A stretch of DNA of 61,265 bases, filler included, from Aduncisulcus paluster (taxonomy: Eukaryota): the NCBI GenBank assembly GCA_024181965.1. It is 5 parts of 5 records of this genome, joined end to end, with 100 filler letters (N's around TTAATTAATTAA, not from the genome) between each part and the next. Parts side by side here need not be neighbours in the genome. Positions count along the whole stretch, not along the records: positions 1 to 10,936 come from BQXS01010985.1; 4 more parts are not named here. One strand, given 5' to 3'. The notes beneath the pieces are model-generated. The model did no database searches. It saw nothing but the letters and a program-made list of their open reading frames with translations, and had not been told where the DNA came from. A program made the position numbers and the translations under genes. This document shows positions 1 to 56,639 of this stretch, piece by piece. Position 1 is the first letter of the stretch. The number at the start of each line of letters is the position of its first letter.

Positions 1-435
1 AGTTTTGAATGGGTTGTTGATAGGTCCACTTCGGAGGTTGAAAATTCACGGGAGTGATGGAAAACCGAAGGAGATTCAAGATCACGCGAAGAATCCAGAG
101 AAAGTGAAGGAATCGTCCTGGAATGTCCTTTTGGAGCTACAGGATCAAGGACTCTCCTTCTCGCTGTTGATTCCGTTGAATTGGCTTGATGAGAAATCAA
201 AGAACTTCCAACTTCCTTTCTCCTCGTTCGCTTGATACGGATTGTAACAATACAATGAGATCTCGAAGAATGGTGACTCATATAGGTTTGGTGGACTTTT
301 CTCCTTTGCATTCCGATACAGATACATTTCAGGGCTTCTTCACAGGACACACATGGGATCCATGAAAGATCTTGAACATACGACGAACCACTTAGAGAAG
401 TTCGGATGGACAAAGTCGGAAAAGGTAATTTCGAT

Positions 436-470
<35 letters not shown>

Positions 471-3400
471 GGAATGAGAAAATCTTGAGGATTTTTGTTT
501 CAACACACTCTCTGCAGTTGTTTGTACAGGGTGTTCGGAAAGCATATCAATAATTGAATTGTTATACAACTCTAACATACTGATACTGACAGAAATACAC
601 TCATTTTGACTTGAAGAAGTGGATCCACTGTACCGCTTGCACGTTTCAAACGCAGAAATCATTGTGTAAAGGGAGTGGAGAGACAGAGGCAAGACACCAC
701 AGTTCAGAGAACTCAAGAGGGAATCAAGGGGAAGAGCTGGAGTAGATGGTTTCGTTAGAGCTGTATACAATGATTTATACACGTTATAAGGCCCATTTAT
801 CGTGTATGTCTTCCCACTATTTGTTTGGCCATAGCACAACACACACACATTCATCCCATCAACAGCACACTCAACGAGTGGATTGATCTCGCTGAAGACA
901 TCCAATTGTGAAGCATCACCTCCAAAGCAGCGGAATACTTCATATTGTGAAGGGGGAAGCGAGGGATGGGAGGAAGTGAGGAGAACAGTGTGGGTGGACA
1001 GAGGAGTGCATCCAATCCCCACGTCCCCGGGTGTACCATCAGAAGGAATTTCTGTCCCAGCTGGAGAAGACGAGGGAGTTGAGGAAATCGGGTTAGAAGA
1101 GAGAGATGAAGGGGCACCTCGTTGTTGGTGGGATTCACGGGAATAATCAGAGTCCACAACTGGACGTACCCGACACAAAACCCGGACATTTCCTTTAATA
1201 TCTTCGATAACACGATATAATTTGGCTGCCTTTGCTTTTTCTAAATGTAAATGATCCTTGAGTTTCTCATTGTCTTTTTTCGACATGGCCAATTCTAATT
1301 TCATTCGATTAACAACCAAACGAAGCTCTTCTTCAGACGCAGAGGAAGTTCCGATAGCTCCCTGAAGAGAAAGGCAGGGAACTGATCGTTTCAAGTCAAG
1401 AAGACGGGTTTGGGAAGCACGAAGCATATTTGTCAGAGTAATCGTTTCTATATTTAGAACCTTATTCGAGTGAGAAAATTGAATAAGTCGGTTGTTTTGA
1501 CTTCGAATTGATCCTTGAAGCTCTTGAATTTGTTTTGACATGGCTTCACATTCTTTGGAATGAAGTATGCCCTGATCGAATAACTTTTGTTGTAAAATTT
1601 GTATTTGTTCGGAGCTTTCTTCTTGGATTTTCTTCATTTCTTTCTTTTTCTCGATATCTTCTCGTTTTCTATATTCCTCTCTCCTCCGTTCTTCTTCCTC
1701 TCTTCTTCTTTCTTCCTCTCTTCTTCTTTCTTCCTCTCTTCTTCTTTCTTCTTCTCTTCTTCTCTCCTCCTCTTCTATTCTCCTCATTTTTGCTCTCTTC
1801 TTCTTCTTCTTTCAACTTCTTTTGACTCTCTATTCTTTTTTGGCGCAATTCTTCTTGTTTTCTCTCCTCTTCCTCTCTTTCTTCTTCCTCTCTTTTCCTT
1901 TCCAACAGTTCTTCCTCTTCTTTCAACTCATCTGTTTCTTTGGATTGAAGATGAGGGAAAATAAACGTCGGCTCAAAACGGTGATTTTCGGCTTCCTTGC
2001 CCCATAAAACTTTCACGTCAATATTGGATAATTCACTTCGTTCATAACTACTATCGCGTCTTTCTTTCGATTTGACTGCCTTATCTGCAAGTCCATCCTC
2101 TTCCTCCTCCTCTCGCAGATTCTTCTTTGGATTCAAGGGTTTCCCTCCTTCACTGCTCATTGGGCCAGTGGAAGTATGAGATCCACCAAGATCAGACAAT
2201 TCGTCTCTCCGAATACCGGCTATAGACTGCTGGATACCGACATGTGATGCCACCAACCGGGCAACTGTCGCTTCTAGCCGTTCCAACCTAGGATCGCTTG
2301 TTCTTCCACTTGTGCTTGAATATTGCAAAGGTTGATTGTTGTGACCTGATTCTCTGTCTGCATGCTTCGTTTTGCCTCCACTCATGCTCATACTCCCTTT
2401 TCTTGGGGAATGGGTCGAGCTTTGATTTCCATATTTCTTCCGACGTGCTTGATTCTTCGTGGATGTATCAGATCGAGCACTGCCAAATGATTCCACACCC
2501 GGATGGGTTGAAGTACTTGAGCTAGAACTGCTTGAACTCACGCTTGTAACATGGTGTGCATGATTTGACGGCAAAGTTGGAGCTTTGAACACTTGGGTGG
2601 GCTGTGTGGTGTTGAATCCACCATAATGGCTATCAGAAAACATAGATGGCACCGAGGTTCCTGTAGTGGCGAGTGGAATGCTACTCTTACGAACAGGAAT
2701 GGAAATAGAAGGTGGTTCGAGTGATGACAATGCGAACTCTTGATCTCTCTGGATTCGTTCTTTTGGTGGCAAGATGGATATCGGAGTTGGATGTTCATCC
2801 TTCTTGCTTCTAATCTGTGGTTTAGAACCTGATATTTGTGAAATTCTTGATCCAACAGATCGAGCACGCATCGAAGAGGAAGGAGAGGTAGCCGTCGAGG
2901 ATGTGTGAGAGGAGATGGTTTTCTGTGACTTTGAGAGATTAAAGAACATCATATGTGTAGATGTCGGTTTTCTCGAAGTTGGTGTCACGGATCGAATCAT
3001 TGACTTATCTTTGATACCCTGGGAGTGCTGGGGGGTAATGGAAGGACTTGCAGCAGATGACATCCGTGGAACACTTTGAGATCTTGGTTCTTTCGATGTT
3101 GATTGTTGGGGAATGCTCTGAGACGAAGGCATAATGGAAATGGCTGGGGTGTGGCTCGTTGGATGGGTGGATATAGCATCGGGAGCACTTTTACGAGCCA
3201 TTTCATCGTCACGAGTTAAGATTGGTTCTGAAGGGGTATGGACAACCGGAGAGGGTGAAGGAGACGATAAAGGAGTAAGACTTCGAACAGACGTAGGACG
3301 AGTAGGATGGCTTGCTGATATAGGACTAGATATTGTTGGAATTTGAGAATTTTTCTGAGGTTTATGGTTAATTGTTGATATTTTTGAGTGTTCAGAAGGA

Positions 3401-3754
3401 TGGGAAGTAGGAGGCAGGTTGGAAAGGAATAAAAGTGAGCCAGGTAGAATATCAATGTCTTTACCTGTCATATTGTCAGATAACTGTTGTTTTCTGTAAT
3501 ATAATACTTGTTCTAATAAAAATTAATCAATATAAAATAAAGAGAGACCGTTAATAAATGTGGAGATGGAAATGTCTAACCAGAATATAATAGAACTAAA
3601 ACGTACGATCATAAGGAATTCCAGTAACCTTAGTAAGATGTTTTTTGATACTAGACACTTTAAGAAGCGGAATTTCATACTTATTTAACTGAATTCTATA
3701 CTTTTTCTTTGTAGGTTGACAAAACACCAAAAATGATATTTTGTTGTCGTTCAT
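1..3754 (-). CDS. Kinesin-14 family (C-terminal motor) protein with N-terminal ubiquitin-like domain; 3'-partial, one intron, one apparent frameshift near 1800
   Basis: Manual translation. The frame open from 1811 to the window edge gives a coiled coil, the neck IEDIKGNVRVLCRVRP (~1205-1160), P-loop YGQTNSGKTYT (~833-801), SMLELYNNSIIDML and switch I SSRSH (~269-255). The upstream ORF 1669-3471 joins through an E/R-rich repeat in another frame. Exon 1 (3754-3607) splices in frame to 3512. Confidence 0.9.
3513..3606 (-). other. Spliceosomal intron (94 nt) in the kinesin gene
   Basis: GTACGT...TTAATTTTTATTAG. Removal gives in-frame ...TGIPYD-Q-QVLYYRKQQLSDNMTG. Confidence 0.85.
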
Positions 3755-4060: not shown

Positions 4061-7000
4061 TTATTTACTCATTTTGGACATCCCAGAGAACTTCTTAAGG
4101 TATACACTGGGAGGCAACTTGCTAAATATAGATTTATGGCTCTCTTCGAACAAGACAAATGGTCTTCCTGTCACTTTTAATGGAATATCAACTCCTTGAT
4201 TGACAACGCACTGTATTACAGACACTCCTTCCTGGTTGAAAGTAATTCCGGCAATGTAATCGTCACCGCACACACAAAACATCTCTGTAGCAACAAGAAG
4301 AGGCTGTGGGGTGGATAAACCTGAGTTTCCAGGACTTATATGAGCTAATTCCTCTTTGCTAGACATGGGATTAATATTGCCGTTACTGGGAATTGAACGA
4401 CCTTCAAGAATTCTAGATTTTGCAATGGTCTTTGAATGCATTTGAATCCTTTCCTTTTGTGATTTTGAAAGCTTTAATTTCTTAAACTGTCTCAAATCCA
4501 CATCTTTTGGCCCAATATACGCAATACCCTTAACACAACCTCCACGAACCATAGGAGCCAAATGAGGTGATGAACGCATAATCACTCTCCGAGTATCAAT
4601 GTTAACAGTCAAAACACCTCCTCCACCACATACACAGACCAGGAAGGAAGAAGAAAAGGCAATATCAACCACAATTGAAGGATGTAGAATATGCGTGGAA
4701 ATTATTTGACTTTGAACAACATCTTGAGAAGGTTGGGACGCTTGGGCGTCAGAGTTTGATTTGGATGAAGTATGTTTATCAATCGCTTTCATCTGTTTGA
4801 CTTGTAATTTCTTTTGTGCTTTTCTATTGACTTTTTTCCCCATTCCTTTGGCATTTGATCCAGCAAGTGAAATAGACCCCCCTGTTTTTGTTAAAGAGAA
4901 GACGTTCCCATTGGTTGCCTTGTTCACCTTGACCTTTTTCTCCATGTGGATATCAGGAAGGTTGACATTTAACGGACCAGTGAGCATATCGAGAGAGTAA
5001 AAAAATACACGTCCGCCAATGACGCTTGCACACATGCTTAGATCATCCTTGACGGCAAGACGGGTGACACTACAAATCGAATCTCTCGGCGACGAGAACA
5101 CGTGCTTGACTTGAATAAACTGTTCAGACGAAATTCCATCGTCGGTCAGAGCTTGATGAATGGCGCATAAAATGACATGGCCATCGAGCGTACCAAGCAA
5201 GAAGAGAGAGGAAGAGAGAGGTTTGCAGCAAGTAGAAGGAGGAAGAGGAGACAATTCCAATTCGTCACTTTCTTCGATATCAGATGTTTCTGCCATCCAT
5301 ATTTTCGAACATTGCGACCCTTTCTTCATCTTTTCACCCAAAATCACTTCATTGGGCAATTTCCACACATAAGTGGCTTCGCTACACCCAACAATGACAC
5401 ATTTACCACAAATAGTGACACATTTCACCCCTTTAAGAGACTTGTCGTGGATTCTGAGCACGAGAGAAGGGGGAATAATTGAAGAATCCAAGGAAGGATG
5501 ATCACTTTCGACATCCGGATGTTTGGTTGATTCTTGAGATTGTGGAACCTTCCAAATATCAACACAGCCATCGCCCTTAAGAAGTTTCTCCTCTTCTTCT
5601 TCTTCATCAATCTCTCGGATAGTTTCTGTTCCTTTGAATATACTGACCTTTGAACTTGCTGATTGCTGGTATGGGGAAAAAGAGGCAATCAAAGTGGAAG
5701 AGATTGGAGGGAGAGATGATAGGGAACGGGATTCAAGGACTATTGAGGAAGTGTCCACCGCTGGATCTGATTTCTCCGTCTCCTCTTCCTCTTCTTCCTC
5801 CTCCTCTTCCTCCTCTTCTTCCTCCTCTTCTTCCTCCTCTTCTTCCTCCTCCTCTTCCTCCGCTACTATCTCTTCTTCCTCTTCTCTCCATTTCGGGAGC
5901 TCAACAGAGGCAACATCGATGTAATTCCACACTTCGTTCAGACCACTGTGTCTTACAACACTCACATCACCAGAAAGGAAGATCTTTCCATCACGACCTG
6001 CACTAAGAGTCGAGTTTCCAATGCTGTAAATTCCCACAACATCATGGGTATGCAAGCGCATTCTTGAGGAAGGGAGCCATGAGTGCACAAACTCTTCATC
6101 GTCATTTGCAGCAACAATGGCATCATCGTCAAATCCAGGCTTTGAATCAGCCCAAATGTCGGCAACTTCTCCAAGGACATCTTCTTCCGCTTCTTCATCT
6201 TCTTCTCCGTCAGTTCTTTTGACGNNNNNNNNNNNNNNNNNNNNTTCTTCCTCCTCTTCTTCCTCCTCTTCTTCCTCCTCCTCTTCCTCCGCTACTATCT
6301 CTTCTTCCTCTTCTCTCCATTTCGGGAGCTCAACAGAGGCAACATCGATGTAATTCCACACTTCGTTCAGACCACTGTGTCTTACAACACTCACATCACC
6401 AGAAAGGAAGATCTTTCCATCACGACCTGCACTAAGAGTCGAGTTTCCAATGCTGTAAATTCCCACAACATCATGGGTATGCAAGCGCATTCTTGAGGAA
6501 GGGAGCCATGAGTGCACAAACTCTTCATCGTCATTTGCAGCAACAATGGCATCATCGTCAAATCCAGGCTTTGAATCAGCCCAAATGTCGGCAACTTCTC
6601 CAAGGACATCTTCTTCCTCTTCTTCATCTTCTTCTCCGTCAGTTCTTTTGACGTGGTCAGAGCGTTTCTCGACGGAATGCCGCAATAATATCATTGTCGG
6701 ATCAACTCCAACGCCGATCACACTGCCATCGTGACAAACACAACCGGCAAGGACATCGGCTTGGCTCTCACGACATACTTGAATGGTGTTCCCATCAAGG
6801 GTGTGGATAGAAAGAGAGTAGGAAGAGCAAGAGAAAATATGACGAGGGAGAGGATTGGGAGAAGATTGGGAAGGGGGTTTTGTGGCTCCAAGAGAATGGA
6901 TGAATGAAGGGGAAGAGGAGGGAGTAGAGGGGGAGGAGAATGAAGGAATGGGAATAAATCCAACATCCCATACACACACATCATCGTTCTCAAGCTTTAT

Positions 7001-7621
7001 CGTAACCATTTCATCCTCATCGACACCACAAATATGAATATGACCATTACTTGTTCCGTAGACAATGGCACGGGAACAAGGGGAAATACTTGAAGATAAA
7101 ACGCTTGGAGGAGCAGTAACATCTCCATCATATCCATGGTAAAACAAAGAACGATATGGTTCTAATCTAAAATCTAACGTATCCATATGAACATGCGAAA
7201 GGCGACATCTACCATCACTGTGTCCTGAACAAAGCAAAAGACCATCAGAGGATATTGATAACGACAAACAGGCTGGAGTTGATTGTAAATGTACTTTGAT
7301 GGGGGCATGTGTATCTAAAGACCATTCTATTATTCCACTTTGTGTTCCTGAAGTTAATAAATGAAAATTCTCCATGAAAAAATCATTTTCAATCTGTTTT
7401 GTTTTGGGATCTCTTGATGGGGGCAAAAATACCATTGATGAAATATTAATGGATTTGTCACCTCTCAATGAATCAATAAAGGTTATTGAATTACTTTCTA
7501 CCCTATATATCTCAATAATGGAACCTCTTGCGGCAGCAAAGAACTTTCCACTTGAATGTAACGCGGTGGCATTAATAGGTTCCGGAGAAGCTCCTAAAAA
7601 CCGACAAGTGGCATTTATCAT
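4061..7621 (-). CDS. UTP4: WD40 protein, UTP4/cirhin-like (U3 snoRNP t-UTP subunit)
   Basis: N-terminal CRF..P..I, IIEWSL, ADVL...GVD, RLHTHDV and C-terminal LPPSVYLKKF match Utp4/CIRH1A motifs. The internal ~143-codon duplication is a gap artefact. Alternative start at 7681. Confidence 0.8.
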   Translation of the reverse strand: MINATCRFLGASPEPINATALHSSGKFFAAARGSIIEIYRVESNSITFIDSLRGDKSINISSMVFLPPSRDPKTKQIENDFFMENFHLLTSGTQSGIIEWSLDTHAPIKVHLQSTPACLSLSISSDGLLLCSGHSDGRCRLSHVHMDTLDFRLEPYRSLFYHGYDGDVTAPPSVLSSSISPCSRAIVYGTSNGHIHICGVDEDEMVTIKLENDDVCVWDVGFIPIPSFSSPSTPSSSPSFIHSLGATKPPSQSSPNPLPRHIFSCSSYSLSIHTLDGNTIQVCRESQADVLAGCVCHDGSVIGVGVDPTMILLRHSVEKRSDHVKRTDGEEDEEEEEDVLGEVADIWADSKPGFDDDAIVAANDDEEFVHSWLPSSRMRLHTHDVVGIYSIGNSTLSAGRDGKIFLSGDVSVVRHSGLNEVWNYIDVASVELPKWREEEEEIVAEEEEEEEEEEEEEEEXXXXXXXVKRTDGEEDEEAEEDVLGEVADIWADSKPGFDDDAIVAANDDEEFVHSWLPSSRMRLHTHDVVGIYSIGNSTLSAGRDGKIFLSGDVSVVRHSGLNEVWNYIDVASVELPKWREEEEEIVAEEEEEEEEEEEEEEEEEEEEEEEEEEETEKSDPAVDTSSIVLESRSLSSLPPISSTLIASFSPYQQSASSKVSIFKGTETIREIDEEEEEEKLLKGDGCVDIWKVPQSQESTKHPDVESDHPSLDSSIIPPSLVLRIHDKSLKGVKCVTICGKCVIVGCSEATYVWKLPNEVILGEKMKKGSQCSKIWMAETSDIEESDELELSPLPPSTCCKPLSSSLFLLGTLDGHVILCAIHQALTDDGISSEQFIQVKHVFSSPRDSICSVTRLAVKDDLSMCASVIGGRVFFYSLDMLTGPLNVNLPDIHMEKKVKVNKATNGNVFSLTKTGGSISLAGSNAKGMGKKVNRKAQKKLQVKQMKAIDKHTSSKSNSDAQASQPSQDVVQSQIISTHILHPSIVVDIAFSSSFLVCVCGGGGVLTVNIDTRRVIMRSSPHLAPMVRGGCVKGIAYIGPKDVDLRQFKKLKLSKSQKERIQMHSKTIAKSRILEGRSIPSNGNINPMSSKEELAHISPGNSGLSTPQPLLVATEMFCVCGDDYIAGITFNQEGVSVIQCVVNQGVDIPLKVTGRPFVLFEESHKSIFSKLPPSVYLKKFSGMSKMSK
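5816..6653. repeat. Duplicated flanks (5816-6224 = 6245-6653) around a 20-N scaffold gap; probable assembly artefact
   Basis: Near-identical 409-nt copies at offset 429 directly abutting the Ns; one A/E codon differs. Confidence 0.85.
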
Positions 7622-7909
7622 TTCACAAACATTGTGATTACATAAAAATAATTTTTCAAGAATTAATTCAGCATCTATCATTGAAATAACAATTCTTGAT
7701 GATAATTATAATGAATATAATATGCAGTTTTAACAAAATTTATTATTTTTAACTAGAGAATTCCCTCCTAACTATGTTCTCCTCTCTATTGACTGAATCA
7801 TGCAGCAAAAACCGTGCATAAGGAATAAGTTAACATCAATAAAATGGCTATAATTCATTATTAATATTTAAAGTTTCAAATATTTGGTATTGATTTTTAT
7901 AGGTTCAGA

Positions 7910-14934: not shown

Positions 14935-15448
14935 CACTAGCAGCAAAAACGAGTTCAATCCTTGATGGAGTTCAATCCAGAGTTGAATAGCTCACATAAA
15001 TTAATTTCTTCCCAAAATATTTTATGATTTTAATCATAATAATGGTAATTTTTTTGAATTGGGTTTTTGTTATTATTATTTCGATGTATTTATATAGTAC
15101 GGCATGAACCGACAATATTTTCGGTAGAAACACCGGTTAAGTATATACCGACTGGCCTTGCTTTGACGAACTCTACCAAATGAAGAAAATAGAGGTGATA
15201 ATGATTTAATTTCACTTTAATATCCTCAATATAAAATATTTTTTCATATTATTCCTCCCTTTTGTGACTTGAGCATTTTTCGAGGGTCAGGGAGGGTGTT
15301 GGGACCTCAAATTATGAAAGTTTAATTCAATAAATTATTATTTCTAACTCTTTATTATGAATGAATGTTATTTTATCCCACTATTAATACCGGTACCTAT
15401 CTGCAGTTTTCTTCAACACAAAACCGTAATATTTGATAACCACTCTAT

Positions 15449-16810
15449 ATGTCAAGTTTACTAGACAAAACAATTCAATTCTCTAAACAAGCTTCTGCCG
15501 CCGATATGGCTGGAAATTATCCTGAGGCCTTAAGATTATATGCTCTAACTCTTAGATCTTGGATGGCCGCTGTCCGTACTGGCGCCATTCCTGAAGGATC
15601 TGCTATGGTAGTCCGAAGCAAAATGGAACAGTATAAGGAAAGATATGCTGCTTTAAAAGAAATGCTCGATTCTAAGAAAAAACAACCTGTCGCTGCCGGA
15701 GGTAAAAAGAAATCATCTGGGAAGAAAAAAGATAAAGGAAAATCTGGTGAGGATGGAGAAGAAGAGGAGGAAGAAATGGATGAAGAAGAAAGGAAGCTCC
15801 AGGATGCTATTGCTAAGGTCATGGTCAGTGAGAGTCCTAATGTAAAATGGGACGATGTGGCCGGTCTCGAGGCAGCAAAAGGTGCTTTGAGAGAGGCTGT
15901 TATCCTTCCCGTAAAATTCCCTCAATTCTTTACTGGTAAACGTAGTCCCTGGCGTGCTATTTTGCTCTACGGTCCCCCTGGTACCGGTAAGAGTTACCTT
16001 GCCAAGGCTGTTGCCACTGAAATCGACTCTAACTTCTTCTCGGTGTCTTCCAGTGACCTTGTTTCGAAGTGGCAAGGAGAATCTGAACGTCTCGTGAAAG
16101 CTATGTTCGAGATCGCCAGAAAAAAGGCCCCCTCAATTATTTTTGTTGATGAAATCGATGCCCTTTGTGGTGCCAGGGGAGACAATGAGTCTGAGTCTTC
16201 AAGGAGAATTAAGAATGAGTTTCTCATCCAGATGCAGGGAGTAGGTAGAGATAATAAGGGAGTCCTTGTCTTGGGTGCCACCAATTTCCCTTGGGGTCTT
16301 GATAGTGCCATTAGAAGGAGGTTTGAGAAGCGTATCTACATTGGTTTGCCTGAAGCTCCTGCCAGAACAGCCATGTTCAAAATCCATCTCGGAAAGACTC
16401 CCAACGAACTAACTGAAGGTGATTTCGGTAAGCTTGGAGAGTTTTCAAAGGGTTTCAGTGGTTCTGATATCGGTACTCTTGTTCGTGATGCTCTGATGGC
16501 TCCCATTCGTGATTTCCAAAAAGCCACCAAATTCTACCCTAAAGAAGTCGATGTCCCTATTAAAAATGATGATGGTGAGGTTATTTCTTCAAAGAGAGAG
16601 ACCAAATGGTTCCCTATTACTGATGACATGACTGGTGATCCCCCCGGTACAGTTGCGCGTGATCCTTTCTCCTTTAATGGTGAAGATGTTGGTGATATGC
16701 CTGTTAAAGCTACCCACTTCATGTCAGCACTCTCAAAGATTCACGCTTCCGTAGGTGAAGAAGATCTGAAGAAACAAGAGGACTTCAGATCTAAATATGG
16801 AAGTGAATGA
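15449..16810 (+). CDS. VPS4: Vacuolar protein sorting 4 AAA ATPase (MIT + AAA)
   Basis: MIT helices, PNVKWDDVAGLE, EAVILPVKFPQFFTGKR, GPPGTGKSYLAKAVATE, SKWQGESE, IFVDEID, RRRFEKRIYI. Confidence 0.97.
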   Translation: MSSLLDKTIQFSKQASAADMAGNYPEALRLYALTLRSWMAAVRTGAIPEGSAMVVRSKMEQYKERYAALKEMLDSKKKQPVAAGGKKKSSGKKKDKGKSGEDGEEEEEEMDEEERKLQDAIAKVMVSESPNVKWDDVAGLEAAKGALREAVILPVKFPQFFTGKRSPWRAILLYGPPGTGKSYLAKAVATEIDSNFFSVSSSDLVSKWQGESERLVKAMFEIARKKAPSIIFVDEIDALCGARGDNESESSRRIKNEFLIQMQGVGRDNKGVLVLGATNFPWGLDSAIRRRFEKRIYIGLPEAPARTAMFKIHLGKTPNELTEGDFGKLGEFSKGFSGSDIGTLVRDALMAPIRDFQKATKFYPKEVDVPIKNDDGEVISSKRETKWFPITDDMTGDPPGTVARDPFSFNGEDVGDMPVKATHFMSALSKIHASVGEEDLKKQEDFRSKYGSE

Positions 16811-37504: not shown

Positions 37505-38524
37505 ATGACAATATATTTTCAATGTATACGATTGGCTTACAAATTTGGTTTTTTTTGTTCCCTTTTGTTTTTTTTATTTTCGTCTGTCATCGGAGCTGGA
37601 ACTGCCCCCATGTATATCATTACTAGAGAAACTATAACCCAAGCAGGATTCAATCTCATGGCCGAAGGAGTTAAAGATCAGATTATTACATCTGTAATGA
37701 GCACAGATATTCCTTCTTTTACGATTGATAATATCGATACTCCCATCGGAGTGGTTAATCTCAGTTTTACAAATATTTCTATTGAAACATTACAAATTGA
37801 ATCCTTAGTTACGTATTTCTTAACCAATGAACTTGAAGTAACCATAAACAACTTTCAATTTCAAGTATCCCTTGATTTTGGGTACAAACTGCAGACATGG
37901 CCATATAGTTCTGATTCGGGGCAATTAGAAATCACTGCAAACAATGCAAGCTTTATGGTGGAAGCTCACGTGACGACAAAAGACGATAGTCCGTTCATTT
38001 ATCTTGATACTGCCCAGTTCTCCCTTGGTGACTTCTCAATTGATCTTCGTGGAACTTCTGAGATGCTTTCTACGATCATTCAGGTTGCTACTCCTTTCAT
38101 TCAGTATAGTATTGAAACCTCAATGAATGCTGTCCTCACTGATGCTATTAATTCTATATGTAACTCTCTGTTCCTTCCTTCAACATGCATTGTGATCGAT
38201 GATACTACTGCCATTGACGTTCGACAACCCATTGATGGGATTTGTCAGGATAATATCCTTGATCTTCCCGCTTCTGGTTTCTATTATGGAACTGATACCG
38301 AATTCTTCGTGCCTCCCACAACTCCGGATCCAGACGATCTTCCTTTGATTATTACTAATGGTATGTTTATTGTATTGTAATTAATTTGTATTCGATGCGA
38401 AAATTAATTTATTTCTGTTTATTTTATCATTTGTTTTCATTTTTGCTTTGACACCAATTTAGATCAAGACCAGAGAATATTCAGTCCTCTGATGGTTGCT
38501 TCATTGTTCGACACTTACCGCCAG
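37505..38524 (+). CDS. BPI/LBP/CETP (TULIP) lipid-binding protein, secreted, 3'-partial, one intron
   Basis: Signal-peptide-like leader, ITQAGFN, IPSFT, beta-rich BPI1-type pattern, Pro-rich linker. After the intron it continues DQDQRIFSPLMVASLF. Confidence 0.75.
38361..38462 (+). other. Spliceosomal intron (102 nt)
   Basis: GTATGT...TTGACACCAATTTAG, phase 1; the frame is open afterwards. Confidence 0.8.
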
Positions 38525-47359: not shown

Positions 47360-50300
47360 TTACGCAGGTTGCATATTCCTTTTTCTGCTTTTTAATAATG
47401 TCTTCAATTTTTGGACATTCCCATCCTTCTCCAATCTTGGAAGCAGGGCTTTGATCGATTGCACCTTCTTGCGAGCTTTATGGACGCTCATACGTTCTCC
47501 AACGTTCCTTTTTGTTAACCCAATAAATACTTCATTAATACAGTCATAAACAGGTTTGTATCTACCACCTTCTATTGTTTCGAGGAGAGAGAAACAGATA
47601 TTTCCAGCAAGTGATTGTGTGGATTCCGATTCAATCGTCTCTTTGATGTTCTTCAGAAGATCCTTTGGTTCACTAACACCTCTGAAAATGGGTAATCCAA
47701 TAAACGGATATTTACAAAGAAACAGGGAAAGTATTGACATTCCAAGAGAATATGCATCACCCTTTTGGGTTTGAATCCCTTCTGTAAGCGATTCATATGA
47801 ATTGAACACGAGGGTTCCACAGATTGTTCGCTCCTTTTGTTTAGCATCTTTACCATCAGAATCGGCAGATTCAACAACACTCTCGGAGAAGGTGGTACAA
47901 ACCTTGGAGGAAGAGATAGAGTCTTGAATCTGAGCAAGACCAAGATCAGCAAGAACAACAGTGCATTTCTTTGAATCAGGATCAACACGAACAAGGAAGT
48001 TGTCAGGTTTGATGTCTCGGTGAATAAGCTTTCGTTTAGCCCTGAATACATCGTCAAGACATTCAATCATCCCAATGCAGAGAGAACACAGTTTTACAGG
48101 ATTTAGGGTTGTGAGATCAAAGAACCCAGAACTTGAGGACGAGTCTGAGCGTTCAGAGTCAGATGACTCAGAAACATCATCGTCATCAGCACTCGCATAC
48201 TTGCCATCTGCACACCAACTCTTTGCAAACACACTCACACTGCCTCCAATACAGAATTCCATCAAAAAGCCATATACACCCGTGAAATCTGCATCGAGAA
48301 GATCGAGGATGTACAAAGGACGTGGGATACGATTGAAACATTTGGGATTGTTGAACAGTCTTTGTTGCACTTTAAACTCCTTCCGACACCCTTCCACAAC
48401 AGTTTCATCCGCAATCCGAAGCATCCTCTTCAGCACACATGGGAAAGGGATGTCATCGATTTTAACAAGAAGAACTTCACCAAATCCACCAATGCCAATC
48501 GTGCACAACTGAGTGATGGTTGATGAAGAAGTGAGGGTAAAAGAATCGGATTTTGGAGAAGGATGAGATTCATGATTTGGTATTTGGGTATGACTTCGAT
48601 TGAAATCATCGGCAATTGTTTCTTCTTTAATTTTATGTCTGACTTTATGTGTCTGACGGCGTTGAGTTTTACCTTTAGGAGATTGATTTGATTTAGATAG
48701 GTCACTGATATCAATCACGATACTACTACTAGGCGGTTTGGGCTTTTTCGAGTGTTTGGGCCTTGACGATTTGATGGCATGACATCGAGGTGGAGGAGGC
48801 GGAATGTCACTTGATGAATTATCTCTGTCTTCAGAATCCATCAGAAATGATGGATCAGAGGAAGAAGACGAAAAAGAATCACTGTCGCTTTCATCAGTAC
48901 TAGGCATATATTGGGCATCCACTGAAGGGATATACGAATCAGGAAGATAGGGATCTCGATTCCGTCTTAACTCCCTTTTTGCTGATCTGAACTCTTCACC
49001 TTTAACAAAAACATTCTTGCCACCTAATTTATATACAACATACATAACACATTCCTCAAGCAAGAAAAGGTATATAAAATCTTTAACATTTAGATGATCT
49101 ATGAATTGACGAAGAACAAAACCAGCAGCAAGAACATCTTTTGTAGCGACTTTAATCCTCATTTTCCCATCTTCAGTCGTGAACTTTGGGATGACATCAG
49201 GATCTAACCTTCTCAAAAAGTTCTTCACATATTCCTTAATAAGTTTTCTAGAAGTAAATTTCTCCCTGTATTTCTTCCTGATGCCAATAAAAAGTTCATT
49301 TTCGCCTTGAACTTCAGGCCACTCATCTTTTTCTTCTTCTATTATTGAATAATAAGGAAGATGTGGTTTGTGAGAACTACGAACAGCAATGGCTGGGTCA
49401 GAGCCACTACTATCATACTCAACAAAGACATGGGAGCTAACTTGTGAGTATGATATGACATCACTATCGCTCTCGTCAGTGGGAGATTTTTGAGAGTCGT
49501 CAGGAGCCGTAACCACCACATTCTTACCATCCAACTTAAAAACAACAAATTTCACACATTCCTCAAGCAAGAAATAATCGGCAAAATCTTTGACATTTTT
49601 ATGATCAATAAATTGATAAATAACAAAACATGCGTCAGGAACATCTTTTGTGGCAACTTTAATCCTCATTTTCCCATCTTCATCAGTGAACTTTGGAATG
49701 ACATCAGGATCTAACTTTCTCAAAAAGTTTTTTATATACTCCTTTATAGGTTTTCTAGAATTCAATTTGTCCCTGAATTTCTTCCTTATGCCAACAAGAA
49801 GTTCATTTTCACCTTGGATTTCAGGCCACTCGTCAGGTTTATCATCCTCAACTGGATACTCATCCTCTTCTTCGTCTTCCTTAGTTAATGATTTCCTTCT
49901 TTTCATCTTTATCTCACCACTCGACCCGTGCTTTCCGCTCCTTCCCTTCTTATTGACAGCATGTGTCGAACCATCAATATCATAGTTGTCTCCATCATAT
50001 TGTTTGTGAGTGTCCATCCTAACAGATTCAGCTCTAAACCCCTCTTCAGGATGAGAAGGAAAGGTCTCCCACGGATCTGTTCCACCTTCATTCTTTCCTT
50101 TCCTTTCCTTTCTTCCTCCCTCTNNNNNNNNNNNNNNNNNNNNCTCAACTGGATACTCATCCTCTTCTTCGTCTTCCTTAGTTAATGATTTCCTTCTTTT
50201 CATCTTTATCTCACCACTCGACCCGTGCTTTCCGCTCCTTCCCTTCTTATTGACAGCATGTGTCGAACCATCAATATCATAGTTGTCTCCATCATATTGT

Positions 50301-51516
50301 TTGTGAGTGTCCATCCTAACAGATTCAGCTCTAAACCCCTCTTCAGGATGAGAAGGAAAGGTCTCCCACGGATCTGTTCCACCTTCATTCTTTCCTTTCC
50401 TTTCCTTTCTTCCTCCCTCTCGAGAGAAGAGTCACGGGATAATCTGATTGTAGCAGAGTGAGAAGTGAGTTGTTTGTCATGAAGAATAGAGGTAGATTTA
50501 CGAGAGGATGTGATATCTTGGGATGAACGTCTGATATGGCCACTTCCTTCCTTCGGTTCATGTGGTGGTGGCAACGAAGGTGGCAGTGATAGTGGGGTCT
50601 CAGGAAGAGGGAAAGAGAACTTTAATTTATAGGTCGATACAGGATGTATGCGACCGTGAAGTACTTGATTGAATTGAAACTTGAAAGATCCTTCTCTGTG
50701 ACACTCCGCAACCTTTTGTGGATTGGAAAAGGCAACAGCATATCTAGTATCATCAATTCGTTTAAAATAAGCCAGTCTTCCTCTTTTAGCACACTCTGAA
50801 CTAACAACATAGGCAGGAACATTTTTATCTGTCACAACGGTTATCTTTTGAGAGGGCAATATTGCTCGAGGATTATCACATTCTGGAGATACTGAACTGC
50901 CAGGGAAATAATTCATAAGATGACAGCCAGTTATGGTTCCATATATTGTCTTACAATAAAAATTGTATGACACATTTTTGCCTCGGGCTTGGAATACAGC
51001 AGGAATAGCCATTCGAGCCTGCTGAATATTAAATATCTCAAAAGCATTCGGGTTTGATGGGTTCAAGGGTGTAAACGCATAAATAAACGAAGTAATTTTC
51101 GATTTGATGCTGGAATATGTTCCACTACCACTGGATATGATCTGACCTTCCAAAGGATGAAGAGGAATTCCAGTGGTTGTCATAGCACGTTTGGGTACCT
51201 TTTGAGCTTTTCCTTCGCCAAATATCCGAATCTTATCAGCATGAGGCATTATTTCTGAGCAAATAATCACATCTGGCGCAATATTTTTCAGGGAAGTAAC
51301 AAATGGGTCAACGAGAAGAAAATGAAATATTTCCCTCCGTTGGGATAAGAATTTATAATATGTAGATTTAAGAACAACAATATGGGCCTCTGTGCCGAAT
51401 GCCATTTCTGCAGCTATTACACCCGGTTGGTGATATTGAGCTTCATATTTCCGAAAAAAATCATCATACATCCGTTTTGGAACTCCATATAGAATTAGAT
51501 AATATGTCTGAGACAT
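47360..51516 (-). CDS. Multidomain protein kinase (unknown N-terminal region, two ~108-aa repeats, C-terminal kinase); frame break at (AGGAA)3 near 50400, or two overlapping genes
   Basis: IGIGGFGEV, CVLK, HRDIKPDNFL, ADLGLA, CGTLVFNSYE. The upstream ORF 50206-51516 stays out of frame even after collapsing the gap duplicate. Confidence 0.8.
49004..49834 (-). repeat. Two diverged ~324-nt coding repeats (49834-49511 and 49327-49004)
   Basis: DEWPEIQGENELLVGIRKK...FLLEECVKFVVFKLDGKNVVV vs DEWPEVQGENELFIGIRKK...FLLEECVMYVVYKLGGKNVFV. Confidence 0.92.
49847..50420. repeat. Duplicated flanks (49847-50123 = 50144-50420) around a 20-N gap; probable artefact
   Basis: Identical 277-nt copies at offset 297. 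Confidence 0.88.
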
Positions 51517-54800: not shown

Positions 54801-56639
54801 GAATATAAGAATGGGGATGATGATGGGAGAGTGACGAATAGGAAGACAAGGAGGAAGAAGAGGAAGAGGAAGAAGAGGAAGAAGAGGAGGAAGGGGCTAT
54901 AAGAGTTGATCCGCGTACCAATTCAATCTCTCGTCTCCTTTCATCCACTCTCTTGACGAAATCAAGAGCCCATGGAGGAGGGGCTGGAGGGGTCTTGAGG
55001 GATAGATAGCTGACTTCTGCAATACATACAAGACTCACAGCAATGGCATTTGTCGCGGCATACATCTTTCTGGTTACATCATGGACAAGCAGAGCCTCTT
55101 CTGGATGGATTATGAACTCCATGCCATACACTTTGAAACAATACAGAGAAGCATCGTCAGGCATATGCAAAGAATGTAATAAATCACGCACATTTCCTTT
55201 CTCAAGGAATGCACTGATAGCACCATAGCAAGTAGTCGAGAATGAAACATGGAGACCTTTTCGAGTACCTCCAGGTAGGTGAACACGGAGAAGCACTCGT
55301 TCACACATCAACTTGTCCACATCAAGCCATAACGAGGGCACTGATCCCTGATGAGGTGGGATATGGGTCATAACATCACAGATCATGCTTCCAAGGCTTT
55401 CTTTGGCACGGTGGAAAGTGTCGGATCGTCTAATTCGGGAGGGAACGGACACAACGCACGATAATGTCGCTGATATAGACTGTGTTGGATGGATTGGAAG
55501 GTTTTTGGAGAATAGATTGAGATGGGGAGGAGAAGGAGCAGCAGGAAACAGGGATTTGGTATGACCTCGGAAATATGAGGAAAGAATATGGGCAGGTAAG
55601 AGAGGAATCTTCTCGATTTTATCTCTTTCCTTGCTGGCATCGAATGAAGAAGGAATATTTAGCCGTTCAGGAGCACAATTTCTGAGACGCCCCTTTTTAG
55701 AAGAGGAAGTCGCAATATTAAGTTTCNNNNNNNNNNNNNNNNNNNNCGTCTAATTCGGGAGGGAACGGACACAACGCACGATAATGTCGCTGATATAGAC
55801 TGTGTTGGATGGATTGGAAGGTTTTTGGAGAATAGATTGAGATGGGGAGGAGAAGGAGCAGCAGGAAACAGGGATTTGGTATGACCTCGGAAATATGAGG
55901 AAAGAATATGGGCAGGTAAGAGAGGAATCTTCTCGATTTTATCTCTTTCCTTGCTGGCATCGAATGAAGAAGGAATATTTAGCCGTTCAGGAGCACAATT
56001 TCTGAGACGCCCCTTTTTAGAAGAGGAAGTCGCAATATTAAGTTTCTTTTTGCGCGAAAATGATGATATTTTTCTGTGTCTCCCATATTTTTGAGTTGAA
56101 ACAATTCGATTGGCGATAGATTTTCCAATACCCTGAATTCCACCAAAAGATGGGAAAAACAGGTTTCTAATTGTTCTTTGAGATTCTTTGTTCTTTTGTT
56201 CCCGTGAACTAAGACAAACATCTGGATATAAGGTAACAGAAGGTGGAAATGGAGGAGGAATTATAGGTTCTGTGGTACTAACAGAAGATGGTAATTGGGG
56301 TAAAATAAATGAGTGTTTTAAATATGATTCGGAGTTAATTTGAGATAGTTCGTCCCGTTCTTTTTCACTATGGAGATATAATACAAGATTGTTGTAAGGG
56401 ATATCTAAACAATCACAAATTAAACATATTTCCTGACTTTCGAGATAAAAAAGGTCATTATAGCGAGCTGGATCCTGTTCATTTGAAAAAAACCATTGAG
56501 ATCCTTCTTCAGATTCAAAAATGGTTTTAAAATGGGAAAATATATTATATTTGAGGGAACTTAGGGTAGTATAGCAATTAAATCTAGTTATATATTCAAT
56601 AACTTCTTTGTTGTTGTTAAAATAAATCTTAACATTCAT
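51859..56639 (-). CDS. Class I-type phosphatidylinositol 3-kinase catalytic subunit (~1486 aa after collapsing the gap duplication)
   Basis: RBD-like segment, C2 domain (WGEWISF, IPLGWVN), helical domain, MDSKKKPL, KVGDDLRQDQLTLQ, SCAGYCVAT, GDRHPSNIM, HIDFGHFLGNFK. ORF 55659-56639 joins in frame after removing the 320-nt offset. Confidence 0.95.
55427..56046. repeat. Duplicated flanks (55427-55726 = 55747-56046) around a 20-N gap; probable artefact
   Basis: Identical 300-nt copies; collapsing them restores the frame. Confidence 0.9.

Follow-up and report, generated by a model that had tools for sequence, protein, structure and literature searches.

Positions 3754 to 3 of the window, by which we mean the whole 61,265-nt stretch of Aduncisulcus paluster DNA analyzed here, encode what is probably a single protein with a ubiquitin-like domain (UBL) at its N-terminus and a kinesin-14 motor at its C-terminus. 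Positions are counted along this stretch, and every feature of the kinesin gene lies on its minus strand. The two ends of the protein are in different reading frames, and their fusion in this DNA is probable, if unproven.

Gene layout from the first exon to the motor

The first exon (3607-3754; 148 nt) starts at an ATG (3754-3752) that is preceded, two codons earlier, by a TAA in the same frame, and codes for residues 1-49 of the UBL, comprising strands 1 and 2, a short extra helix, and the main helix. It is followed by an AT-rich, phase 1 intron of 94 nt (3513-3606; GTACGTTT...TTTTTATTAG, with the ends GTACGT...TTATTAG), the removal of which joins the 49-codon exon to a long minus-strand frame. 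Exon 2 begins at 3512, and its first part (3418-3512) supplies UBL residues 50-81, the last strands of the domain. The spliced product has 664 residues and extends to a stop codon at 1671-1669. We regard the splice junction as supported because the match of the spliced product to relatives that are free of the intron is ungapped. The donor also fits the motif GTAYGTTT, which is present six times in the window vs. 2.54 expected by chance. A second candidate intron that resembles the one in the UBL was noted at 38361-38462 on the plus strand (102 nt, GTATGTTT...AATTTAG, AT-rich, phase 1), with the frame open beyond it.

The UBL is followed by a basic, probably disordered linker rich in Ser, Thr, and Pro (residues 82-470, 2251-3417) that has no Pfam family; for residues 81-470 the Ser/Thr/Pro content is 43.8% and the pI 10.8. 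Next in the same upstream frame, as read from the translation, are a mixed charged segment and then a Glu/Arg/Lys-rich segment of helix type (1792-2250), together ~150 residues. The linker contains three [ST]x[IL]P motifs, SQIP, SILP, and SSIP (at ~3340-3350, 2770-2780, and 2680-2690 of the minus strand), which we rejected as SxIP (EB1-binding) signals: shuffled sequences are expected to contain 1.35 (P 0.15), and the motifs are absent from 12 of 18 relatives.

The frame that encodes the motor can be read without a stop from 1811, with an ATG at 1787, as far as base 3, where the window edge cuts it off; this gives an ORF (open reading frame) of 595 codons. Residues 1-197 of this ORF (1197-1787) comprise a Glu/Arg/Lys-rich segment and a coiled-coil stalk, and the neck and motor domain, the latter with long Ser-rich inserts, occupy 3-1196, where the window edge cuts the motor. 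Pfam identifies the motor as Kinesin (2.3e-38), together with Microtub_bd (PF16796, 1.9e-23) over residues 184-340 of the ORF. The neck motif KGNVRV (1196-1179; KGNVRVLCRVRP from 1196), which we take to be the kinesin-14 consensus, is directly N-terminal of the motor and has the coiled coil ahead of it. Both the P-loop (GQTNSGKT, 830-807) and switch I (SSRSH, 269-255) are intact. The part of the motor beyond the window edge could be recovered from the protein P0001 (265 residues), which derives from another public contig of 2,740 bases and has a 103-residue identical overlap with the motor end in the window; it supplies the last 162 residues of the motor, including switch II (DLAGSE). Since P0001 ends ~12 residues past the motor, the motor is C-terminal. 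Its five best relatives of solved structure are KCBP, KIFC3, potato KCBP, Ncd, and KIFC1, all of them kinesin-14s, and by these matches we assign it as a C-terminal kinesin-14 motor. The inserts include a run of ~17 serines and one of ~75 residues that precedes switch II and extends into P0001; despite them, the catalytic motifs are intact.

Much of this layout had been proposed in an initial annotation of the window. The splice from 3606 to 3513 given there is the one described above, and the first 80 residues of our spliced product are exactly as it wrote them. It had called the UBL invisible in the ORF track, and exon 1 does escape an ORF list, because unspliced it is an ORF of only 52 codons that terminates within the intron. 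The Ser/Pro-rich part, put at ~500 residues, is present with a length of ~390, and the Glu/Arg coiled-coil segment, the C-terminal kinesin-14 motor with its KGNVRV neck, and a frame break near 1800 were all found as that annotation had placed them.

The ubiquitin-like domain and its distribution among kinesin-14s

A search with the neck and motor of the window against 1.84 billion representative proteins gave 13,084 matches at E up to 0.001, and we examined the best 150 of these. The spliced 85-residue N-terminus matched 17 of the 150 (E < 0.01), in nearly every case at the N-terminus of the relative, the best match being to a Carpediemonas protein (5.6e-16), and an iterated profile converged on 19 UBL-bearing relatives. 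In each of the 18 of these that were scanned, Kinesin and Microtub_bd are found at the C-terminus of the same polypeptide. The named members are Carpediemonas membranifera KAG9391462.1, for which the precomputed Pfam assignments list PF00240 alongside PF00225, Giardia muris TNJ26483.1 (named "Kinesin-14"), Willaertia magna KAL9658086.1, Lacrimia lanifica, Diplonema japonicum, Trypanosoma grayi XP_009313082.1, T. cruzi, T. conorhini, and T. melophagium, the remainder being from metagenome or run assemblies. In the Trypanosoma proteins P0070, P0187, P0188, and P0189 the UBL is located 35-75 residues from the N-terminus. As 19 relatives carry the UBL and a C-terminal motor in one polypeptide, we conclude from these sequences that the fusion is a real family trait and not unique to this genome. 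A search of the ESM Atlas with the whole of member P0040 returned only plain kinesin-14 clusters, none with PF00240.

To characterize the domain itself we used an alignment, A1, of 16 complete UBL domains from the relatives, in which the window sequence is not included. The hidden Markov model (HMM) of A1 matched residues 1-81 of the spliced product over its full length at 74.7 bits (E 2e-19, Z = 1e6), with no gap across the exon junction, and when 1050 further open pieces from the window were compared with the same HMM only exon 1 itself was significant (48.5 bits). Against solved structures the A1 profile matched mono-ubiquitin (1.7e-6, residues 7-71), NEDD8 (1.1e-6 over its full length), ISG15, and the UBL of Dsk2 (2bwe_S, 1.1e-6); relative to ubiquitin the family has a four-residue insertion ahead of the main helix. 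Against longer proteins the profile gave at least eight matches, and among the matches listed all were already known members. The Pfam ubiquitin model is above its cut-off in four of the 18 scanned relatives and matches at E up to 0.1 in seven of the 18.

Fold prediction was made on the domain of the Carpediemonas homolog rather than on the window's own sequence. With A1 as the alignment, AlphaFold2 produced a model with a mean pLDDT of 93.9 and the order strand-strand-helix-strand-strand, for which the top Foldseek matches were ubiquitin, NEDD8, ISG15, and SUMO (query TM 0.75-0.86, rmsd 1.0-2.8 Å); a structure search of the ESM Atlas with the same model was concordant (TM 0.83-0.86). By the sequence profiles and the predicted fold of this homolog, the N-terminus is a ubiquitin-family beta-grasp domain. 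A Gly-Gly pair after the last strand was found neither in the window nor in any of the 16 relatives' domains, the only such pairs (in two diplonemids) falling inside the UBL, and the window UBL has >1,000 residues C-terminal to it. Because no Gly-Gly follows the last strand, the UBL, as read from these alignments, is an integral domain rather than a modifier that could be cleaved off.

These results bear out the initial annotation in its reading of the N-terminus as a ubiquitin fold and of the UBL as non-cleavable for want of a di-Gly, and the AlphaFold prediction that it had suggested gave the expected beta-grasp, on the Carpediemonas domain. Its suggested search of proteomes for a UBL with a C-terminal kinesin likewise returned such proteins, 19 of the best 150 motor relatives, including members of both Metamonada and Discoba. 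The fusion that it had described is thus seen as a single polypeptide in 19 relatives, but in the window the two halves are in different frames. The novelty that it had seen in comparison with Ncd, Kar3, and HSET is weakened, as the layout is already in public protein sets (Giardia muris, Carpediemonas).

The placement of the motors was examined in two trees. A FastTree was made from 143 of the 150 matches and the window, after removal of P0001 (the same gene), P0003, P0118, and P0007 (matched span >650 residues), and of three matches with none or <250 matched residues. All 19 UBL rows fell within one 28-row group (SH-like support 91). The second, an IQ-TREE mixture-model tree, had 52 rows, all kinesin-14-type with no other kinesin families included, and in it the 28-row group, the window, and a 13-row KCBP-like group shared a branch with SH-aLRT 98 vs. 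ten other kinesin-14 rows. The 13-row group contains a MyTH4-FERM (KCBP-type) kinesin from Ostreobium, ankyrin-WW kinesins, and a RhoGAP-bearing fragment, and no ubiquitin match was found in any of its rows. According to these trees, the motors of the UBL-bearing subfamily group next to the KCBP-like kinesin-14s.

The three relatives closest to the window by motor, P0002, P0012, and P0005, are metagenome ORF calls in which the similarity to the UBL starts at or just after the first residue of exon 2 of the window; in P0002 and P0012 this similarity is preceded by 14-38 unrelated residues. The pattern suggests a shared intron position that ORF callers have read through, in which case the database models of these proteins would be wrong at the N-terminus. 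Two scans of metagenomes for the DNA of the closest relatives gave no match.

The frame break and competing explanations

Relative to the upstream frame, the motor frame is shifted by +1, and both are open over a zone at 1672-1811 that is purine-only, with an 18-nt repeat and an A5 run (1787-1791), and that contains no N. The stop of the upstream frame (1671-1669) is 118 nt downstream of the ATG of the motor frame. When the 18-nt repeat is read in the upstream frame, an unusual run of Lys, Arg, and Gly results, terminated by this stop; read in the motor frame, the repeat gives continued Glu/Arg/Lys-rich sequence. One A fewer in the A5 run joins the frames, and any single-base length change within 1672-1811 is equivalent. 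We consider the break most likely to be a single-base length difference produced by a sequencing or assembly error in low-complexity DNA, and believe there is a good probability that one intact gene runs across it; we infer that it is transcribed as a single mRNA in this organism.

It is feasible, although unlikely, that the frameshift is real, the locus being either a pseudogene that broke recently or a single broken allele; the longest product would then be a UBL-linker protein of 664 residues that lacks a motor. The frames do differ in the DNA as given, and six other conserved genes of the window have Pfam domains that are unbroken away from N gaps, so base-level quality looks fair and the assembly does not appear to be generally indel-ridden, which leaves room for a genuine lesion. 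However, both halves are otherwise stop-free, over 664 and 595 codons, and the break sits in a purine-only repeat with an A run, a place prone to length errors. We find it very improbable that the locus represents two independent genes, one for a UBL/Ser-Pro-rich protein and the other for a tail-less kinesin-14 translated from the ATG at 1787. That the motor frame opens with an ATG and the upstream frame has a stop of its own would fit such an arrangement, but it is made unlikely by the 118-nt coding overlap that it would require on one strand; moreover, all 19 UBL-bearing relatives are single polypeptides, no stand-alone homolog of 330-1050 residues was found for the upstream Ser/Pro-rich ORF, and the Glu/Arg/Lys-rich sequence continues over the frame switch. 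We give scarcely any credence to the break being overcome in the RNA, through an unconventional short intron, or during translation, through programmed +1 frameshifting. The shift needed is indeed +1, and there are 396 formal GT/GC-AG pairs that restore the frame (AG being ubiquitous in the zone), but in none of the 396 did we see the GTAYGT donor, or the T-rich tract with TAG at its end, of the introns at 3513-3606 and 38361-38462, and on these splice signals we judge an intron at the break to be unlikely. The zone has no T-rich stretch, and the A run lacks a stop codon of the kind associated with known +1 frameshift sites.

The explanation that we favor, and as a whole think likely, is that of a single UBL-kinesin-14 gene with one intron, an error at the break, and a UBL that serves as a docking handle. 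Such a gene would run from 3754 to 3 and beyond the window, with its single 94-nt intron, and would produce a protein of ~1,380 residues consisting, in order, of an integral UBL (~80 residues, no Gly-Gly), the basic Ser/Thr/Pro-rich linker (~390 residues), a Glu/Arg/Lys-rich helix and coiled-coil stalk, a kinesin-14 neck, and the C-terminal motor. It would belong to a conserved subfamily of UBL-bearing kinesin-14s present in Metamonada (Carpediemonas, Giardia muris) and Discoba (Willaertia, diplonemids, trypanosomes). If the protein behaves as established kinesin-14s do, the stalk would dimerize it and its motors would walk to microtubule minus ends. The tail, with the folded UBL at its far end, would then hold whatever is moved, be it a cargo or a second microtubule; the basic linker may provide the nucleotide-independent microtubule contact usual for kinesin-14 tails, and the UBL would be a protein-docking handle for a partner. 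A docking role would suit the UBL because the neighboring clade carries diverse N-terminal cargo domains.

Within the same gene model, we regard as possible, but somewhat doubtful, that the UBL and basic linker together form the second microtubule- or tubulin-binding site of the tail, as in the tails of Ncd, HSET, and GiKIN14a. The UBLs are basic, with a median pI of 9.4 and values of at least 8.95 in 13 of 16 (9.68 in the window), as is the linker, with the pI given above. Kinesin-14 tails commonly bind microtubules, that of GiKIN14a among them according to a published account (PMC11055046), and in a Naegleria preprint four of five kinesin-14 tails are reported to be positively charged (bioRxiv 10.1101/2024.01.08.573270). 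Against this possibility, the Carpediemonas UBL is neutral (pI 6.56), and the two invariant basic columns of the UBL align with Lys11 and Lys27 of ubiquitin and may be structural. In ubiquitin, Lys27 pairs with Asp52, so the Lys27-equivalent column in particular may be structural. As these columns match ubiquitin's own lysines, we rejected a conserved basic surface as proof of microtubule binding.

Several further observations weigh against the single-gene account with a docking UBL. The Pfam scan of the window covered unspliced pieces only, and in it the exon 2 piece alone (first 37 residues) matched ubiquitin at an E of just 0.043, with 14 bits vs. a cut-off of 25.4 and over profile positions 39-67 of 72, and exon 1 alone had no Pfam ubiquitin match. 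In the best tree, the branch that sets the window and the 28 rows apart from all other rows has a support of only 41, the motor branch of the window is long (1.65), and nine of the 28 group rows are without a UBL; of these nine, three are short fragments, P0005 starts inside the second half of the UBL, and five have at least 300 N-terminal residues in which no UBL was detected. The final point concerns Ile44, whose patch is the usual receptor contact of ubiquitin. The equivalent position is Tyr in the window; of the 16 relatives, 12 have a hydrophobic or aromatic residue there, and the other four have Lys, Arg, or Gln. A role for the UBL as a proteasome shuttle is a candidate, toward which the conservation at this position points neither way, and the cargo or proteasome/p97 adaptor put forward in the initial annotation is likewise a candidate role.

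Outside the kinesin gene, the window is ordinary gene-dense eukaryotic nuclear DNA, with 33-49% G+C in 2-kb windows and twelve N gaps. Other genes in it encode a gamma-tubulin complex protein, cysteinyl-tRNA synthetase, a Vps4-type AAA ATPase, armadillo-repeat and kinase proteins, a class III-like PI3-kinase, an MCM protein, and an M20 peptidase. Apart from the one at 1672-1811, the frame breaks seen in the window coincide with N gaps: the PI3-kinase gene (within 55659-55749) and a kinase gene (within 50124-50431) change frame at gaps (55727-55746 and 50124-50143, respectively), and those two breaks are gap artifacts. The neighboring frame at 4061-7705 on the minus strand (1,214 codons) has no Pfam match and contains long Glu runs; a ~150-residue stretch of it is nearly identical on both sides of the N gap at 6225-6244 and looks like an assembly-gap duplication, not biology. 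A complete Vps4-type ATPase (MIT, AAA, Vps4_C) is encoded at 15440-16807 on the plus strand, 12 kb from the kinesin gene. VPS4 is reported in the proximity proteome of the trypanosome kinesin TbKIFC1 (PMC7479354), and its nearness to the kinesin gene here is probably a coincidence.

Relation to known motors and UBL proteins

The layout is visible in databases, and we found no description of it in the literature searched. A full-text literature search returned no description of a ubiquitin-like domain on a kinesin-14. The word "ubiquitin" has zero occurrences in the main text of Wickstead et al. (2010), the architecture tables S3.XLS and S4.PDF being outside the scope of that count, and two supplementary zip files of the same paper contain none of "ubiquitin," "UBQ," "UBL," or three short motifs. 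It likewise does not occur in the main text of Richardson et al. (2006) or of the Naegleria preprint, which annotates kinesin-14 domains (bioRxiv 10.1101/2024.01.08.573270).

Kinesin-14 tails decide what minus-end motors cross-link or carry, and model members have only disordered basic tails. A folded UBL has been retained at the end of the tail in protists as different as Giardia-like and trypanosome-like forms, which suggests a conserved partner that has not been sought. The microtubule organelles of these organisms, such as flagellar roots, the ventral disc, and the feeding apparatus, are built by poorly known motors. The UBL-kinesin-14 is also a simple architectural character that can be scored across eukaryotes and that bears on whether Metamonada and Discoba have derived traits in common. 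A more speculative proposal, which we think rather unlikely at present, is that it is an ancient class common to both groups, either a rare character uniting the "excavates" or one that the last eukaryotic common ancestor already had and that was lost elsewhere, in which the UBL couples minus-end transport to ubiquitin-recognizing partners or is a new microtubule-binding module. If this were true, characterized motors such as TbKIFC1 might carry an unrecognized UBL. As a case of annotation, the locus illustrates how a first exon of only 49 codons, together with a frame break in low-complexity sequence, can hide a gene model; in at least three relatives the model likewise seems to begin at this junction.

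Three characterized C-terminal motors from Discoba and Metamonada, TbKIFC1, GiKIN14a, and Diplonema papillatum KIFC1, were compared with the window protein by description only. TbKIFC1 of Trypanosoma brucei is reported to move endosomal membranes, and its N-terminus is presented as a VHS domain on the basis of homology modeling (PMC7479354). No VHS match at E up to 0.1 was found in the T. grayi member. TbKIFC1 may be an ortholog of the UBL-bearing proteins, but the residue numbers published for it (PMC7479354) could not be convincingly aligned with the trypanosome UBLs. The all-helical VHS model shown there has a motif, KRYHTV (PMC7479354), similar to the invariant basic-x-aromatic pattern with which strand 2 of the UBL starts (RRYKVF in relatives). 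The tail of GiKIN14a from Giardia intestinalis is reported to bind microtubules and raise processivity (PMC11055046), and Diplonema KIFC1 is placed at basal bodies and the microtubule root of the feeding apparatus (PMC13615690).

Among proteins known for a UBL, Rad23, Dsk2/ubiquilin, and parkin share with the window protein an N-terminal ubiquitin fold that lacks a Gly-Gly end and is not conjugated. They differ from it in that they act in proteasome substrate delivery or as ligases, none being known as a motor, and in that the Ile44-equivalent is not uniformly hydrophobic in the UBL-kinesins. Ncd, Kar3, and HSET (KIFC1) have in common with the window protein the C-terminal motor, a neck of the KGN[IV]RV type, a coiled-coil stalk, and a basic tail; to our knowledge, their tails are without a ubiquitin-like domain. 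KCBP, of plants and green algae, has the closest solved motor (3h4s, 1.3e-21) and similarly combines a folded, cargo-type N-terminal domain with a C-terminal motor. However, neither the MyTH4 nor the FERM domain of KCBP is found in the ORFs of the window (Pfam, E up to 1), whose N-terminal domain is a single one of the ubiquitin family. The UBL-bearing relatives have the same homologous N-terminal UBL, variable linker, coiled coil, and C-terminal kinesin-14 motor with Microtub_bd as the window protein, which differs from them in a longer linker richer in Ser and Pro, in a motor with long Ser-rich inserts and a long branch, and in its broken frame.

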